Below are positions 23,418 to 28,159 of a stretch of 64,000 bases of DNA, in pieces (positions within the stretch are counted from its first letter, which is position 1; each line of letters starts with the position of its first letter). Origin of the DNA: a virus (Duplodnaviria > Caudoviricetes); the IMG/VR virus record IMGVR_UViG_3300042970_000025; one strand, written 5' to 3'. Both the position numbers and the translations under genes were made by a program. The notes below the pieces were generated by a model, which worked only from the letters and a program-made list of their open reading frames with translations, did no database searches and was not told where the DNA came from.

Positions 23418-24989
23418 TCAAATCCTTTCCGTTAAATCGAGTCCGCATTTTAGTTCGAACGTAAGTTCATTTCTAGACTTTACTATGATTTTGCTTACAA
23501 ACTTTTCAAAAAGCTCTTCGTCGAAATCATCCAGCATGACACCTTTTTCGGTGAAGCGCAGGAGCGCAAAGGCAGAGGATGCTATAGCGGCTTTACTGCT
23601 TGCCGAATGGGAAAGCGTTTCTTTTTCCTTCCGGAGCGCTCCAGCTTCCTTTCTAAGGGCATTTGTTTCCTTTAGGCAGATCGCCTGACTGATGATGCCA
23701 TCTGCCAATAGTTTTGTCAGGGTTTCCCGCTTTTCTGTGTTTTGCGCAAGATCGGTTTCGATCTGCTGGATTCTTCGGAGAGCGTCGTCTCTAGAGGAAC
23801 TTCGGAGCGCCGCCGCATAAGGGCGGAGAATGGTTCTCCTGGAGAAAACGAGTTTGTTCAGCATCGTGACAAAGGCGTATTGAATCGCATCGTCCCGGAT
23901 AAACTTCATGCTGCATTGCTTTTTATCTGTGATGTGAGTCTGGCAGCTCCAGACCGCGTAACGGTTTAGACTGCTGGAGCAGATCCTTCTTCGAAACACG
24001 CTGCCGCACTCTCCGCAGATAATTTTTCCGGAAAAAGGGTAGCGCTTCTGGTATTTACGGCCTTGCCTTTGGATTCCTTTTTCTTCTGCATGCTGCTGAA
24101 TCAGTCTTTGCGCAGCATCAAACTCTTCATGGCTGATGATCGCCTCGTGGTGGTTATGGCAGAGGTACATCGTCTGTTCTCCATGATTGTGGTGCCGGTT
24201 AAACTGCGAATCGGTCCAGGTCTTTTGAAACAGGCAGTCACCGGTGTATTTTTCATTTGTGAGCATTCCTCTAATGGTACTTTCCGACCATTTGCCGCCA
24301 CGTCTACTTGGGATCTTCTTTTCATTCAGATCCTTTGCGATGGCGGTCATTCCTTTCCCTGAAAGAAGAGAAGTGAAGATCCCTTTTACAATTTCCGCCT
24401 GTGCAGGATTCACAGACATCTTTCCATCTTTCCAGTCGTAGCCGTAGGGCACGCTGCCTGCCTTAAAGGTGCCGCTTTCAAACCGCTTTTGAATGGACCA
24501 TTTGCTGTTCTGAGAAATGGATGAGGACTCATCCTGGGCCATACTCGAGAGAAGGGAAAGAAGCAGCTCGCTTTCCATAGTTCCGGTGTCGATGTTTTCT
24601 TTTTCAAACCAGATCGGAATATGCAGAGACAAAAGTTCACGTACAAGCTGAAGACAGTCTGCCGTATTCCTTGAGAAACGGCTGATTGACTTGGTGATCA
24701 CGAAGTCGATTTTTCCTTTTCTGCAGTCTTGCATTAAACGCATCAATTCCGGGCGCTTGTCTTTCTTTGTCCCGCTGATGCCTTCGTCAAAGTAAAGCCC
24801 TGCAAACACAAGATCAGGTCTTGCTGCGATGTAGCTTTCGTAGTGTTGTTTCTGGGTTTCTAAGCTTTCCAGCTGCGCGTCCATATCGGTGGATACGCGG
24901 CAGTAGGCTGCCGTCCGAAGTTTCTCTGGCTTTGCTCTTGTTTCTTCTATTTTCGTTACTTTCTTCAATGCTTTTTCCTCCTTTTTCAT
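23418..24989 (-). CDS. Large serine recombinase
   Basis: [24 protein letters not shown] Zn ribbon. Confidence 0.95.
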   Translation of the reverse strand: MKKEEKALKKVTKIEETRAKPEKLRTAAYCRVSTDMDAQLESLETQKQHYESYIAARPDLVFAGLYFDEGISGTKKDKRPELMRLMQDCRKGKIDFVITKSISRFSRNTADCLQLVRELLSLHIPIWFEKENIDTGTMESELLLSLLSSMAQDESSSISQNSKWSIQKRFESGTFKAGSVPYGYDWKDGKMSVNPAQAEIVKGIFTSLLSGKGMTAIAKDLNEKKIPSRRGGKWSESTIRGMLTNEKYTGDCLFQKTWTDSQFNRHHNHGEQTMYLCHNHHEAIISHEEFDAAQRLIQQHAEEKGIQRQGRKYQKRYPFSGKIICGECGSVFRRRICSSSLNRYAVWSCQTHITDKKQCSMKFIRDDAIQYAFVTMLNKLVFSRRTILRPYAAALRSSSRDDALRRIQQIETDLAQNTEKRETLTKLLADGIISQAICLKETNALRKEAGALRKEKETLSHSASSKAAIASSAFALLRFTEKGVMLDDFDEELFEKFVSKIIVKSRNELTFELKCGLDLTERI

Positions 24990-25019: not shown

Positions 25020-25205
25020 TCAAGAGTTTTCTGGATCGATTTCCGAGAAAAGAGGAGGAAAGGTCTTAAAGTTGATGTCCGAGAGCCGGTTGAATTCTTC
25101 CTTGCTGATCAAGCCGGAATCAAGAAGAAGCTCTGCAATTTTCTGCGCCCTCCGGGAATCTAGTTCTGCCTGCAGTTTTTCTTTCGTATAGTATGTGTTG
25201 TTCAT
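25020..25205 (-). CDS. Small SHOCT-like protein upstream of the recombinases
   Basis: LLDSGLISKEEFNRL; AAGGAGG RBS. Confidence 0.7.
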   Translation of the reverse strand: MNNTYYTKEKLQAELDSRRAQKIAELLLDSGLISKEEFNRLSDINFKTFPPLFSEIDPENS

Positions 25206-25276: not shown

Positions 25277-28159
25277 TTAGTCTTTTTTGTAGAACGAACA
25301 TTCGTACCCATCAGCCCGAAGAAGAAGCCCTGGCGCCCAGGGAGGCGTTCGTCCCATGAGATCACAGATCTCCTGAAGCTCGGTCTCAAGAGGGCACTCG
25401 ATAATCAGCTCATCGTGGACGTGGGCGACAATAGAGCAGTCTGAGAGATTGTGCATGGCATAGCAGAGGATGTCTCTTGCGATGGCCTGGATGATGTTCT
25501 CCACGAACTTTGGCCCGTAGGACTCAATCCGCTCCCACTTTTTCGAAGGGCCTATTCCCATGTAAGTAACCGATTCCTCTCCGAAGCGGTTTTCTCCAAT
25601 CTGGGGCTTTACGTAAGACAGTCTCCGGCCAGATGGCAGGGTGATAAACAGCATCTGGCTTTGGCATTTGATCGTCAGGCCATGCGTTTTCGTGACTATC
25701 TTCTTCTTTACCGCTGTTTTTACCGCCCGGTCCACATCCCACCAGAGCCGCACGATGTGGGGATTGGCTTTTCTCCACATGTCGACGATGGGTTTAAGCT
25801 CAGATTCCTTAAGGCCCATCTCGAGAGCGCCCATAGCCTTTAGAGCTCCTACAGAACCTCCGTATCCGCAGTTATGAACTAATTTCCCCGATACGGTAAA
25901 ACGGTGATATTCTCCGGCATTTCGTATGTCATAAACTCTAACCTTGCCTCGATGAGCCGCCAATTTTTTCTCTTTTCTTTGACAGCCTGCTCTGCACTTT
26001 CTATAATCCCCGTACGGTCCATTCCCTGGCTTAGCTTCTTGATTACAACACTTCTGGCATAAGGCCAATATTTCTGATGGAATTCGCTTAAGACGGTATT
26101 CCTTCGATTTGCCTGGTTCTGCCTGCGAGTTGCGAAGCGGATGTTTCCAGGGGCATAATTTCCATTGTTGTTGATCCGGTCGATTTCCATTTCCCGGCTT
26201 GGAAGACCGAAAGTACGAATGAGATAAAGCCCGGCTTCGGTTACTGATGGAAATTCGAACTTTATGCCTCGTCCTCCATAGTTTGGATAGTTGCGGTCCT
26301 TTGGATTTGTGCATCGTTGTTTTGCAGCGGTAAGACGTCTGTCCAGCCATACCGGGATTTTCCTCGGTTGGGAGCAATGCTGACAGCCCCTGGATTTTCT
26401 TCTTCTTAGACTTCCAAGGTCTGTCCATTGGATTCTTCCGCAGCCGGTGCATTGGGTTAGAACATAACACCGGTTCCAACTCTCGCTCCAGCGCTTTTGG
26501 GGACTGATAATCTTCACCCAGCCGTACTGCCTGCCTACTATCTCCTGCCTGTATGAGATGTGCGCCGCTTCTGGCGGCTTCTTCAAAGTGTACTGGCTGA
26601 CATTTCCCTTCGATGAAAACGAGGTGATCTGGTGTTGCGGTAAGTCCTTCATAAGTGATTACCTCCTTTCTTCCTCTGTAGACTACTCCGTCATGCTTTA
26701 CCCAGGACTTCCCGTCCCAGAGAAGATCACTCCTTGTTACAGATTCTATCGGCTTTAAGCCGTGGTTTGTAAGTACAGGCTGGCCTTCCGCGATGCAGGC
26801 GAGCACTGCGATTTTCCCTTTCTGGCGGAGCTCCCCGTTGATGCCGTGCTTGACCACGGGAACGCCAAACATGGCAGAAGCCGTGGAGCAGTAGATATCT
26901 TCACCCTTCGCAAAAGCATCCATCGTGTGGGTTTCTCCCGCCAGCCAGGCGAGAACTCTAGCTTCAATGGAGGAGAAGTCGGAAACGATGAACTTGCATC
27001 CCTCCCGCGGGATAAAGGCGGTCCGGATCAGCTGGCTTAAGGTATCCGGGATGTCATCATAAAGTAACTGAAGAGCTTCATAGTCACTAGATTTTACCAG
27101 AGCTCTTGCTTCTCCTAAATCCGGCATGGTATTTCTTGGAAGGTTCTGAAGCTGAATCAGGCGCCCTGAGAATCTTCCGCTTCGGTTGGCGCCGTAGAAC
27201 TGAAACATCCCTCTGGCCCGTCCATCCTTACAGGCTGCGTTTTCCATTGCCTGGTATTTGCGCACAGAGGATTTCGCTAATTTCTGGCGTAGCTTCAGGA
27301 CTTCCTGAATGCTGGGCGGCGCTGTTTTAATCAGTTCTGCAACCGCTTTCTTTCCAAGGGTCTCTGTTTCGATGCCGCGCTCCTTCAGCCAGCTTTTCAT
27401 TTGCATCACGCTGTTTGGATTTTCCAAGCCGGTCAGGTCCCTTAGTTTATCTGTCAGTTGCTGTTTGGACTGTTCATCAATTGTAATGGCGGACCGAACA
27501 AGCGTCTTATCAATCCTAATTCCTCTGTCGTTGATCTTCTGATCGAGCTTGTATTCTTCCCAGACGAAATCCGGGACAGGGTAGTGGGAGAGTTTCCTTT
27601 GGATAGACATTTCGACCTCCACATCCCGCTTGTTGTAGAATTTAAAGAGATTCCACTTTTCTATTGCGTCAGATGGGAGGTTCCGCGTTTTACCTCCGTT
27701 TGCCTTCGTTGGCCTGCAGGGGATGCAGAAATAGCGGATTAAGTTTTTACCCTCTGTCAGCTTCTGCTCCTTAAGGCCAAGAGCCTCACCAGATTCTTTT
27801 AGAGATAACGGAAGCCCAAGGTAGGCAGACCAGATCATGGAGCAGCGCCAGTTCTTAGGACTTAGATACTTTGCAGAGAGCCGCTCGGGATAGCAGCGGT
27901 GAAGATACGTAGACAAGCAGACGCGTTCAAAGTTAGCGTTAAAGGCCCATTTAGAAATTTCATCGTCTGTCAGGGCGTCTAAGATGCCTCTTGGAAGCCT
28001 TTCTTTTGCCGCAAGGTCTACAACCTGAACCGGGCCATCGTCCAGCGCGTAACCAAAGAGCAGAATCTCAAAATCAGGAGCCTCTGCATATCGGTACACG
28101 CCGGATTTGTTCAGGTTGATGCTGGAATAGGTTTCAATATCGATGTGAAGTGTTTTCAT
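25277..28159 (-). CDS. Phage family-A DNA polymerase with intein (960-aa precursor, 651 aa if spliced)
   Basis: HIDIETYS exonuclease, SDFSSIEAR motif A, RQKGKIAVLA|CGYGG motif B split by the insertion, VHDE motif C. Confidence 0.95.
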   Translation of the reverse strand: MKTLHIDIETYSSINLNKSGVYRYAEAPDFEILLFGYALDDGPVQVVDLAAKERLPRGILDALTDDEISKWAFNANFERVCLSTYLHRCYPERLSAKYLSPKNWRCSMIWSAYLGLPLSLKESGEALGLKEQKLTEGKNLIRYFCIPCRPTKANGGKTRNLPSDAIEKWNLFKFYNKRDVEVEMSIQRKLSHYPVPDFVWEEYKLDQKINDRGIRIDKTLVRSAITIDEQSKQQLTDKLRDLTGLENPNSVMQMKSWLKERGIETETLGKKAVAELIKTAPPSIQEVLKLRQKLAKSSVRKYQAMENAACKDGRARGMFQFYGANRSGRFSGRLIQLQNLPRNTMPDLGEARALVKSSDYEALQLLYDDIPDTLSQLIRTAFIPREGCKFIVSDFSSIEARVLAWLAGETHTMDAFAKGEDIYCSTASAMFGVPVVKHGINGELRQKGKIAVLACIAEGQPVLTNHGLKPIESVTRSDLLWDGKSWVKHDGVVYRGRKEVITYEGLTATPDHLVFIEGKCQPVHFEEAARSGAHLIQAGDSRQAVRLGEDYQSPKALERELEPVLCSNPMHRLRKNPMDRPWKSKKKKIQGLSALLPTEENPGMAGQTSYRCKTTMHKSKGPQLSKLWRTRHKVRISISNRSRALSHSYFRSSKPGNGNRPDQQQWKLCPWKHPLRNSQAEPGKSKEYRLKRIPSEILALCQKCCNQEAKPGNGPYGDYRKCRAGCQRKEKKLAAHRGKVRVYDIRNAGEYHRFTVSGKLVHNCGYGGSVGALKAMGALEMGLKESELKPIVDMWRKANPHIVRLWWDVDRAVKTAVKKKIVTKTHGLTIKCQSQMLFITLPSGRRLSYVKPQIGENRFGEESVTYMGIGPSKKWERIESYGPKFVENIIQAIARDILCYAMHNLSDCSIVAHVHDELIIECPLETELQEICDLMGRTPPWAPGLLLRADGYECSFYKKD
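25871..26797 (-). mobile_element. Intein, 309 aa (residues 455-763 of the precursor)
   Basis: Starts CIAEGQPV, block B TPDH, block F VYDI, ends VHN followed by Cys+1. Confidence 0.92.
25879..26652 (-). CDS. HNH-type homing endonuclease nested in the +1 frame of the intein
   Basis: CTGCG..GCQHC; KQRCTNP..YPNYGGRGI; EIDRINNNGNYAPGNIRFATRRQNQANR; RBS GAAAGGAGGT 8 nt before the ATG. Confidence 0.88.
   Translation of the reverse strand: MKDLPQHQITSFSSKGNVSQYTLKKPPEAAHISYRQEIVGRQYGWVKIISPQKRWSESWNRCYVLTQCTGCGRIQWTDLGSLRRRKSRGCQHCSQPRKIPVWLDRRLTAAKQRCTNPKDRNYPNYGGRGIKFEFPSVTEAGLYLIRTFGLPSREMEIDRINNNGNYAPGNIRFATRRQNQANRRNTVLSEFHQKYWPYARSVVIKKLSQGMDRTGIIESAEQAVKEKRKNWRLIEARLEFMTYEMPENITVLPYRGN

Follow-up and report, generated by a model that had tools for sequence, protein, structure and literature searches.

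The gene for the family-A DNA polymerase (PolA) in the window, which is the whole analysed stretch of 64,000 nt of viral DNA, very probably carries a mobile intein of class 1 within motif B, the region of the O-helix, and the homing gene of this intein appears to be overprinted on it rather than fused to it. The splicing domain is encoded in the polymerase frame. A second ORF lies in the +1 frame of the same strand, entirely inside the intein. This two-frame layout is real, is maintained by selection and is common to more than 100 prophages. Everything that a preliminary description stated at the sequence level held, and its central reading, an intein with a separately initiated +1 mobility protein, was backed by the fold, conservation and selection tests. 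The features are as follows.

25277–28159, minus strand: family-A DNA polymerase precursor gene, 960 codons plus stop (ORF; Pfam DNA_pol_A)
26798–28159, minus strand: N-extein, aa 1–454, with the C-terminal end ...RQKGKIAVLA in motif B
25871–26797, minus strand: class-1 intein, 309 codons in the polymerase frame, PolA aa 455–763 in motif B
26543–26797, minus strand: N-terminal splicing lobe, residues 1–85, blocks A and B (pLDDT, dN/dS, mini-intein retention)
25955–26542, minus strand: intein-frame linker, residues 86–281, a stop-free read-through of the putative endonuclease gene
25871–25954, minus strand: C-terminal splicing lobe, residues 282–309, blocks F and G, ending in His-Asn (pLDDT 79–89)
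25280–25870, minus strand: C-extein, aa 764–960, whose first residue is the Cys+1 nucleophile of CGYGG
25879–26652, minus strand: +1-frame ORF, 257 codons plus TAG (PHROG, BFVD, dN/dS, recurrence)
26661–26670, minus strand: Shine-Dalgarno-like GAAAGGAGGT in the intein codons R-K-E-V, 9 nt upstream of the +1 ATG (26650–26652)

The polymerase gene and its intein

PolA was matched by Pfam DNA_pol_A in two separate stretches (E 3.8e-25). Its gene is part of a phage or prophage replication module (DUF2800 / Enc34-type ssDNA-binding / PolA). The window matches contigs from bioreactor and digester metagenomes, and the nearest genome is Eubacterium sp. F2. A host among the Bacillota, as assumed in the preliminary description, is possible for the window. 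Nearly all named hosts are Bacillota, with Gardnerella and Actinomycetaceae besides.

The in-frame insertion of 309 aa between ...KIAVLA and CGYGG was reproduced at the coordinates first given for it. All of the splicing hallmarks originally listed were also found, namely Cys1, T55-x-x-H58 (TPDH), VYDI, the terminal His-Asn and Cys+1. These hallmarks are invariant in 18 homologues, and so are R287, Y289, D290, I291, R292, H308 and N309 in the C-terminal lobe. The AlphaFold model of the in-frame product reached a pLDDT of about 79–93 for residues 1–85 and 282–309 (block means of 83–93 over residues 1–80), and residues 86–281 were unstructured with a pLDDT of about 29. When the model was compared with 48,161 chains by VIA-align, 30 matches with Z >= 8 were obtained, and every one of them is an intein or a Hint domain. 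The scores ran from Z 15.5 down to 8.3 and then fell to below Z 4. The best match was the Mtu RecA intein (Z 15.5, rmsd 2.3 Å over 116 residues). Curated intein and Hint models in Pfam and NCBIfam gave no match at E <= 1, and the sole sequence-family match was PHROG 26005, a family of unknown function. The class-1 assignment is therefore based on the fold and the catalytic residues.

The two parts of the in-frame product evolve differently. The N-terminal splicing lobe has a dN/dS of 0.14 over codons 1–48 and is kept in mini-inteins of 122 aa. The linker is fast-evolving and is deleted in the mini-intein relatives. These results support that the insertion is a genuine class-1 intein, and that its endonuclease slot is an unstructured but open linker. 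In 74 intein-less alleles, ...KIA.LA is joined directly to L/C-GYGG, so read-through homologues exist. All intein-bearing alleles have Cys at +1, and most of the empty alleles have Leu at this position.

The overlapping reading frame and its history

The +1 ORF was found where it had first been placed, entirely within the intein, with its ATG across TAT-GAA and its TAG in the codons K-L-V. The stop is four codons short of the intein end, and the ORF shares nucleotides with splicing blocks B, F and G. Across the same stretch the third frame contains 18 stops. The layout recurred in 17 viral lineages, most pairs of which share 63–70% nt identity, and in 66 of 69 species-level bacterial genomes. 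It is present in Streptococcus and Gardnerella phages in GenBank and in 31 IMG/VR contigs. No stop in the intein frame was observed in any carrier, whether GenBank phage, IMG/VR contig or one of the 69 genomes, and the intein is exactly 309 codons long in all but a few of them. The +1 ORF is intact in 15 of the 17 viral lineages and in 61 of the 69 genomes (strict test).

Synonymous shuffles of the 17 lineages gave an expectation of 9–17 intein-frame stops, and none was observed in any lineage. In the reverse direction 6–10 stops were expected in the +1 frame, and 16 of the 17 lineages had none. For the window, shuffles with the +1 protein fixed contained 12.4 intein-frame stops on average, and not one of 1000 was stop-free; the reverse test gave 6.2 stops. 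Wobble periodicity follows the intein frame in codons 1–60 and 301–309, and the +1 frame in codons 61–300. Over codons 101–270, dN/dS was 0.10 in the +1 frame versus 1.50 in the intein frame, and the pairwise amino acid identity was 0.65 versus 0.34. Among independent metagenome contigs 35 SNPs were found; 22 of them are at third positions of the +1 frame, and none creates a stop. Stop avoidance and the per-frame dN/dS of the homologues agree with the preliminary description of two open frames.

The +1 ORF has its own ribosome-binding site and start (AAAGGAGGT/ATG). The duplex of the Shine-Dalgarno-like site with the anti-SD has an energy of -12.9 kcal/mol, which beats every sampled position of the same gene. 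In most lineages this energy is -6 to -13 kcal/mol, and an SD-like site is kept in most of those that have the +1 ORF, with one lineage (L029) lacking a recognisable SD. The codon of Tyr49 is TAT in 16 of 16 lineages with the 309-codon out-of-frame layout, though several exteins prefer TAC, and it is TAC in a deletion derivative that lost the +1 ORF. The start signals are weakened where the ORF was deleted: the start codon is gone in L005, and the SD is gone in the mini-intein of L034. No sigma-70-like promoter was found on the gene's strand within polA, which gives no indication that the +1 ORF has a transcript of its own.

The intein has a patchy distribution with marks of recent movement. 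Its presence and absence on the extein tree require at least 8 changes, and at least 6 of them are forced by well-supported branches. The intein-bearing L059 lies among intein-less Leu alleles that are 89–97% identical to it away from the site, and over the 150 nt immediately upstream of the insertion its identity to L043 drops to 68%. Several stages of decay were found, with premature stops in L003 and L037 and mini-inteins of 168 aa and 122 aa. The sporadic distribution on the polymerase tree, the decayed and mini-intein derivatives and the divergent tract beside the site support mobility.

Other derivatives differ in how the two frames are connected. In L038 the nuclease core has moved into the intein frame through one -1 and one +1 indel. 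This in-frame form is a derived state because the +1 frame still contains a relic ATG and both terminal parts of the nuclease. L039 is a related polymerase locus at an unrelated site, where the nuclease is fused to the N-half of a related intein as a normal ORF and the gene is split. Forms fused by a single indel also exist in databases (P0126 and P0123). It is possible, though less likely than not, that the family preserves successive steps in the origin and decay of bifunctional inteins in living lineages. The common state may be a mini-intein on which a free-standing HNH-like gene is overprinted; the others may be the in-frame form of L038, a contiguous intein-endonuclease, the N-half fusion and split of L039, and deletion to mini-inteins of 168 aa and 122 aa.

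Three other explanations of the layout were weighed. Compensating sequencing or assembly indels could have pushed an in-frame HNH intein out of frame, and L038 truly has its nuclease core in frame. However, the frames are identical in about 100 independent assemblies, no indel was found among the 17 viral lineages, contigs of four independent sequencing studies differ over the window's stretch by substitutions only with no inserted or deleted letters, and the L038 form is derived, which makes an artefact extremely improbable. Hardly more credible is an insertion that is not spliced as a protein. Group I introns with HNH genes occur in polymerase genes of SPO1-type phages, but no intron or other RNA family of Rfam was found in 25500–27200. 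The ShiLan insertion, proposed to be a tolerated surface loop, is a precedent for an open non-splicing insertion that hides an HNH gene (PMC11855218). Against a similar loop in PolA stand the Hint fold with its full set of conserved class-1 catalytic residues, the Cys+1 that is always co-inherited with the insertion, and the site itself, since the O-helix Tyr of motif B comes two residues later and about 300 extra residues would be hard to tolerate there. It is also very unlikely, if slightly less so, that the endonuclease is made by ribosomal +1 frameshifting as a fusion of N-extein, N-intein and nuclease, without a start of its own. A fusion of just this kind is encoded by L039 in an ordinary ORF, and P0126 and P0123 are fused by single indels. 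In most lineages, however, a +1-frame stop lies two codons ahead of the ATG, so that any shift site would be confined to a few codons. The universal retention of the ATG against codon preference and that of the SD-like site in most ORF-bearing lineages also speak for internal initiation, and no obvious slippery motif was noticed in an unsystematic look.

Identity and probable role of the +1 protein

The preliminary description called the +1 protein a Cys-rich HNH-type nuclease. At the level of family annotation this label stood. The +1 protein (P0002) matched PHROG 374, 3377 and 2081, all named HNH endonuclease, at E 1.1e-24, 6e-19 and 2e-12, and GenBank also names its family HNH endonuclease. 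Its 49 BFVD structure/sequence matches at E <= 1e-3 include several named HNH or homing endonucleases, and several annotated merely as DNA-binding or AP2 proteins. The protein is composed of a zinc ribbon, a 'YGGRGI' element and a 'DRI..G.Y.P.N.R' element.

Curated models and solved structures did not support the label. Pfam and NCBIfam scans of the +1 protein gave neither HNH nor any other match, and their HNH models were also absent from its annotated free-standing relatives. An HMM search of the two frames returned PHROG HNH endonuclease families for the +1 protein, but no Hint or HNH model of Pfam or NCBIfam. Among 40 distant relatives, one had a weak HNH_3 match (E 0.003). The alignment of the +1 protein, used as a profile against PDB sequences, had 0 matches at E <= 10, and Foldseek found nothing in the PDB at E <= 1e-3 for the model. 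The wide VIA-align comparison, made with a model of middling confidence, reached Z 4.5 at most, with Z 3.6 for the HNH enzyme PacI. In the ESM Atlas, the fold search gave TM <= 0.41 with unnamed clusters, and the feature search gave only NUMOD, AP2 and I-HmuI-like clusters with scores below 0.9. Because the model is multi-domain and of middling confidence (pLDDT 62), the lack of a fold match is no evidence of a new fold.

In the model of the +1 protein, strands at residues 155–157 and 173–175 and a helix at 176–181 give a beta-beta-alpha order over residues 155–181. The motif in this region is E156-x-D158-R159-I ... N170 ... N179/N182. The canonical HNH catalytic His is absent at that place in the family, where Asp-Arg (D-R-I) stands instead of Asp/His-His. 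Across distant relatives R159 is invariant and D158 nearly so. The phage family of the +1 protein has 72,888 representatives at E <= 1e-3, labelled 'HNH endonuclease' and lacking the HNH histidine. In the relatives P0130 and P0131 the module occurs in three or four tandem copies, a pattern seen more often in DNA-binding modules than in nucleases. The sequence evidence only weakly suggests an HNH nuclease, as an annotation-level assignment.

The +1 protein might not be a homing nuclease, but might bind specific DNA sequences or serve as an accessory protein, its HNH-like module being degenerate. Another nuclease would then move the intein, or the +1 gene would be kept for another benefit. The replaced His, the lack of Pfam, NCBIfam and PDB sequence matches, the tandem-repeat relatives and the relatives annotated only as DNA-binding or AP2 would fit this explanation. 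Yet the family name in PHROG and GenBank and the predicted beta-beta-alpha order point to a nuclease. Strong purifying selection acts on the +1 ORF precisely in complete inteins, and in mini-inteins that look immobile the ORF is decayed or deleted. The patchy intein and the divergent flank tract are also what homing driven by double-strand breaks would give. A non-nuclease role is considered improbable, although it deserves more weight than the three explanations above.

For the overprinted homing intein, we infer splicing, translation of the +1 ORF, nuclease activity and the target of the nuclease as follows. In-frame translation of polA would give a precursor of 960 aa. Residues 1–85 and 282–309 would co-fold as a Hint domain, and the disordered loop of about 195 residues between them would have the absence of stops as its sole requirement. 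Splicing through Cys1, Cys+1 and Asn309 would then release a polymerase of 651 aa. Ribosomes starting at the internal Shine-Dalgarno/ATG in the +1 frame would make a free zinc-ribbon, HNH-like protein of 257 aa. The most likely target of this protein is polA without the intein in related phages or prophages, which it would cut close to the codons of motif B, and repair from an intein-bearing copy would transfer the intein with a short flank including the Cys+1 codon.

Related systems and significance

The architecture is already published for other genes in preprints of 2025–2026. The out-of-frame intein endonucleases mentioned for actinobacteriophages in the preliminary description do exist: in their non-canonical inteins, the homing endonuclease is encoded either on the antisense strand or in a reading frame of its own (Gosselin, Arsenault, Gogarten, bioRxiv 10.1101/2025.01.02.630785). 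Their proposed origin is a free-standing endonuclease that invaded an intein (bioRxiv 10.1101/2025.01.02.630785). The PolA intein likewise has a splicing domain in the extein frame, a structureless in-frame slot, an endonuclease-like gene in an overlapping ORF and signs of continuing horizontal spread. In contrast, the out-of-frame gene of the actinobacteriophages is endonuclease VII-like and occupies frame 3, and the 19 host genes listed in that preprint do not include PolA. The intein described here sits in a family-A polymerase of mainly Bacillota prophages; its ORF uses the +1 frame, encodes a protein of a different family (zinc ribbon/YGGRGI/DRI) and additionally extends over splicing blocks B, F and G. 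A cyanobacterial dnaX intein has an out-of-frame (+2) LAGLIDADG homing endonuclease (Phillips, DeSimone, Gogarten, bioRxiv 10.64898/2026.09.14.751524). Its overlapping ORF has a low dN/dS, and the dN/dS of its intein frame is raised by lost synonymous change (bioRxiv 10.64898/2026.09.14.751524). The PolA intein shows the same pattern; full, mini and empty alleles coexist for dnaX. The dnaX intein differs in its cellular gene, its LAGLIDADG enzyme and its frame.

The ShiLan insertion hides an HNH endonuclease gene in another frame of a phage DNA methylase gene (Arsenault, Gosselin, Gogarten, Genes 2025, PMC11855218). As in PolA, the insertion is free of stops in frame and carries an overprinted gene, which begins a few codons inside the insertion and ends at its end. 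ShiLan is without a detectable splicing domain, whereas in PolA a complete Hint domain flanks the overprinted stretch. In fractured genes, as far as they are described in a later account, the intein is split and its halves are separated by a free-standing endonuclease gene (Dassa et al. 2009, via bioRxiv 10.1101/2025.01.02.630785). On this description, they share with the PolA intein a separately translated endonuclease tied to intein halves, and L039 resembles their type. The window's intein, unlike theirs so described, is contiguous, and the host frame is open across the putative endonuclease gene. Split inteins have two ORFs with an intein half each; the window has a single ORF of 960 codons, and the split form was found only at L039. 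Inteins with the endonuclease as an intein domain share the Hint fold, insertion at a conserved catalytic motif and a presumed homing cycle, but the endonuclease-like protein here is a separate polypeptide and is in frame only in the rare derivative L038. What defines out-of-frame inteins was found in PolA: an endonuclease-like ORF in another frame of the same strand with the host frame open, a contrast in selection between the frames, and signs of continued horizontal movement. A literature search, with most subscription journals outside its scope, found no PolA motif-B intein of this kind.

The PolA family adds a large and clean example, with about 100 independent sequences, to a class of inteins known only from preprints of 2025–2026. 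Its named hosts include Streptococcus, Gardnerella, Peptoniphilus, Anaerococcus and many gut Clostridia. Out-of-frame inteins are common beyond actinobacteriophages, and are also found in an essential enzyme of replication. A dual constraint is measurable over about 600 nt, for a protein in one frame and for openness and flexibility in the other, with the length frozen at 309 codons. The family is a natural test set for the detection of overlapping genes and for annotation pipelines, which now call the polymerase alone. The large phage family labelled 'HNH endonuclease' without the HNH histidine merits a direct test of its biochemistry. If the in-frame and overprinted forms are both active, they would provide an experimental model for an origin of inteins in which splicing comes first and the endonuclease invades later, and also for a gene that moves between reading frames.

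The polymerase gene, its intein and the nested reading frame

The polA gene of the window is a single ORF that carries an in-frame insertion of 309 codons, and a second ORF lies in the shifted frame inside this insertion.

Features of the polA region
23418-24989, minus strand: large serine recombinase with Resolvase, Recombinase and Zn_ribbon_recom domains, downstream of polA
25020-25205, minus strand: small SHOCT-domain gene, directly downstream of polA
25277-28159, minus strand: polA, 960 codons, from the ORF call
25871-26797, minus strand: insertion (intein), residues 455-763, between ...RQKGKIAVLA and CGYGG
25879-26652, minus strand: nested ORF in the +1 frame (product P0002), 257 codons

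The DNA_pol_A Pfam match to the polA product falls in two stretches, and the insertion point is motif B of family-A polymerases, two residues ahead of the conserved O-helix tyrosine. The insertion begins with Cys, contains the motifs TATPDH and VYDI, and ends with His-Asn, which is followed by Cys. The ATG of the +1 ORF is made by the codons TAT-GAA, and GAAAGGAGGT, formed by the codons R-K-E-V, stands 9 nt ahead of it. Its TAG falls within the codons K-L-V, four codons short of the intein end, and the third frame contains 18 stops over the intein. The preliminary description of the sequence is exact. The replication module abuts the integration module, because the SHOCT-domain gene and the serine recombinase sit directly downstream of polA.

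No match to the intein was found with the Pfam and NCBIfam intein models. An AlphaFold model built from 18 homologues gave pLDDT of about 80-93 at residues 1-85 and 282-309, and of about 29 at residues 86-281. When the model was compared with 48,161 solved chains, all 30 matches with Z >= 8 were inteins or Hint domains, led by Mtu RecA (Z 15.5) and gp41-1 (Z 15.3) and also including NrdJ-1, Npu DnaB and hedgehog, and unrelated chains gave Z < 4. C1, T55, H58, H308 and N309 are invariant in the homologue alignment, Cys+1 (the first C-extein residue) is present in all intein-bearing alleles, and natural derivatives of 122 and 168 aa retain precisely the two confident lobes. By its predicted fold and catalytic residues, the product of the polymerase frame is an intein whose middle is empty.

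Recurrence and selection of the two-frame layout

The same layout is present in the Streptococcus phages Javan255, Javan113 and Javan101 and in the Gardnerella phage vB_Gva_AB1, whose records are annotated as 'DNA polymerase' only, as well as in 31 IMG/VR contigs and 69 species-level bacterial genomes. The named hosts are mostly Bacillota, the closest given being Eubacterium sp. F2 (88% identical), and others are Peptoniphilus, Anaerococcus, Lachnospiraceae, Oscillospiraceae, Selenomonadaceae, Megasphaera, Acetobacterium and Allobaculum; the layout is also carried by Gardnerella and one Actinomycetaceae genome. Seventeen lineages, most pairs of which share 63-70% nucleotide identity, align without gaps across the 927 nt. 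The intein frame is free of stops in every sequence, and an intact +1 ORF is found in 15 of the 17 viral lineages and, by a strict test, in 61 of the 69 genomes.

When the +1 protein was held fixed, the intein frame acquired 9-17 stops on synonymous shuffling, and in no lineage was any of 1000 shuffles stop-free; the reverse test gave 6-10 stops. Which codon position varies most depends on the region: it is in register with the intein frame at codons 1-60 and at 301-309, but with the +1 frame at codons 61-300. The dN/dS values differ by region and frame, and dS is also lowered in the C-terminal lobe, so both frames are under constraint there.

dN/dS by region and frame, from 11 independent close pairs
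N-terminal splicing lobe, codons 1-48, intein frame: 0.14
Centre, codons 101-270, +1 frame: 0.10
Centre, codons 101-270, intein frame: 1.50
C-terminal lobe, codons 285-309, intein frame: 0.20

Compensating indel errors, which the preliminary description had named as a ground for refutation, were looked for in Logan contigs from bioreactor sludge and anaerobic digester metagenomes of four separate studies. These contigs carry the stretch of the window and differ by substitutions only. Among their 35 SNPs, 22 lie at third positions of the +1 frame, 23 alter the intein-frame residue, 13 alter the +1 residue, and none creates a stop. Since only substitutions were found, this ground for refutation falls away. 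The layout of two open frames is conserved and under selection, and is neither chance nor error. The preliminary observation of an intein with an overprinted putative endonuclease is confirmed, and its interpretation is supported by the predicted fold, by conservation and by the tests of selection.

The nested protein and its probable expression

Residues 37-229 of P0002 match PHROG families named HNH endonuclease (E 1.1e-24, 6e-19 and 2e-12), and several of its 49 BFVD matches are named HNH or homing endonuclease, others AP2 or DNA-binding. Acinetobacter and Staphylococcus phages have free-standing relatives, about 30-33% identical, that bear the annotation HNH endonuclease, and the family comprises 72,888 representatives at E <= 1e-3. 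The conserved elements comprise a Cys zinc ribbon (C62, C68, C71, C90, C93), R113-C114-x-N, Y125-G-G/x-R-G-I and the motif E156-x-D158-R159-I ... Y166 ... N170 ... N179/N182. P0002 matched neither the HNH models of Pfam and NCBIfam nor any PDB sequence, and its model gave no convincing match among solved folds. It has Arg at the place of the HNH catalytic His; residues 155-181 are modelled as strand, strand and helix, in the order of a beta-beta-alpha motif, with pLDDT 60-70. Judged by sequence, P0002 is a protein of an endonuclease-annotated phage family, for which the HNH label stands at annotation level, and its nuclease activity is putative. Two related proteins, P0130 (848 aa) and P0131 (514 aa), contain several tandem copies of the module 'RC.NP..Y..YGGRGI ... 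DR(I/V)D..G.Y.P.NCRWAT', accompanied by a zinc ribbon or NUMOD3. Because tandem copies are odd for a catalytic nuclease domain, the true role of this very large 'HNH endonuclease' family is in question.

The start of the +1 ORF is conserved. Tyr49 is encoded by TAT in each of the 16 lineages that have the 309-codon out-of-frame layout, an outcome whose naive joint probability from per-gene usage is about 2e-5; several exteins favour TAC, and TAC is found in the deletion derivative without the ORF. In most ORF-bearing lineages the sequence ahead of the ATG pairs with the anti-SD at -6 to -13 kcal/mol, which ranks among the top 0-9% of positions of that gene. This pairing is gone in the 122-aa mini-intein, and the ORF-bearing lineage L029 also lacks it upstream of the ATG. 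A +1-frame stop stands two codons ahead of the ATG in most lineages. The +1 ORF is probably expressed by internal initiation on the polA mRNA, since no promoter-like site was found inside polA on the strand of the gene.

On the opposite strand, a perfect sigma-70 consensus (TTGACA-17-TATAAT, 12/12) lies at 25979-26007 (plus strand), within the dual-coding stretch and antisense to both intein and nuclease. The score is 12/12 in the window and L006 only, 11/12 in Eubacterium sp. F2 and 8/12 at the median of other relatives, a pattern explained by coincidence of the hexamers with conserved II and AVK codons. The site is probably a by-product of coding, and it could drive an antisense RNA.

Related architectures, mobility and decay

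The architecture with an out-of-frame endonuclease is already published. The published cases are actinobacteriophage inteins whose endonuclease lies in a different frame or antisense (10.1101/2025.01.02.630785), a dnaX intein of cyanobacteria with a LAGLIDADG ORF in the +2 frame (10.64898/2026.09.14.751524) and ShiLan, where the out-of-frame HNH comes with no splicing domain (PMC11855218); these authors credit Gorbalenya (1998) with older hints. The window intein differs from the published cases in its host gene (PolA), its nested frame (+1), its nuclease family and the overlap of the nested ORF with splicing blocks B, F and G as well. No family-A polymerase motif-B intein of the overprinted kind is described in the papers that were searched.

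In one 962-aa polymerase (P0129, L038:3001-5889, Logan contig DRR481247), the nuclease core of the 310-codon intein is in the polymerase frame. Relative to the other members of the family, it lacks 1 nt near nt 304 and has 3 extra nt at 598 and 1 at 752. A relic ATG and both the N- and C-terminal nuclease parts remain readable in the +1 frame, so this form derives from the overprinted one. The locus looks like a natural passage by which an overprinted endonuclease came into frame, as predicted by Gosselin et al. (10.1101/2025.01.02.630785). A homologous intein occupies a different site (...GGDQ|C ... SN|CNWQNL) in a PolA-like gene of a GC-rich phage (P0133, L039:1083-3804, Logan contig DRR438474; 10 members in its 90% cluster). 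Its first ORF combines the N-extein and N-intein with an in-frame nuclease module that lacks the zinc ribbon, and its second ORF, overlapping by 17 nt, holds the C-intein and C-extein; from this arrangement, a natural split intein or a fractured gene is possible. Two database proteins, P0126 (771 aa) and P0123 (461 aa), are fusions caused by single indels, of the N-part of the polymerase with the nuclease frame or of the nuclease with the C-extein. They are probably dead alleles or assembly errors, and illustrate the effect of one uncompensated indel at this locus.

Of the 111 related polymerases compared, 37 have the intein; the empty ones have either Leu (54) or Cys (20) at position +1. On the extein tree, no fewer than 8 intein gains or losses are needed, and well-supported branches force at least 6 of these; the window's own clade contains three intein alleles and seven empty Cys alleles. 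The intein-bearing L059 (near-identical to L140 and close to L160) is nested in a clade of empty Leu-type alleles. Its identity to L043 is 89-97% from -1200 to -150, 68% in the 150 nt immediately upstream of the site, 86% immediately downstream and about 90% farther, as would be expected for homing with co-conversion of a short flank. Such co-conversion must also import the Cys+1 codon (25868-25870 in the window), so the empty Cys alleles, which group beside intein-bearing alleles in the comparison of empty types at loci L041-L119, are plausibly footprints of precise intein loss. Alternatively, the empty Cys alleles may be immune or permissive to homing.

Decay of the nested gene is seen in L003, L037 and several genomes, where the +1 ORF has premature stops and the intein frame is still open. 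In-frame deletion derivatives of 260 aa (L196), 168 aa (L005 and L030) and 122 aa (L034-L036) have lost the nested gene and kept both splicing lobes. These natural mini-inteins may be useful as compact splicing tools.
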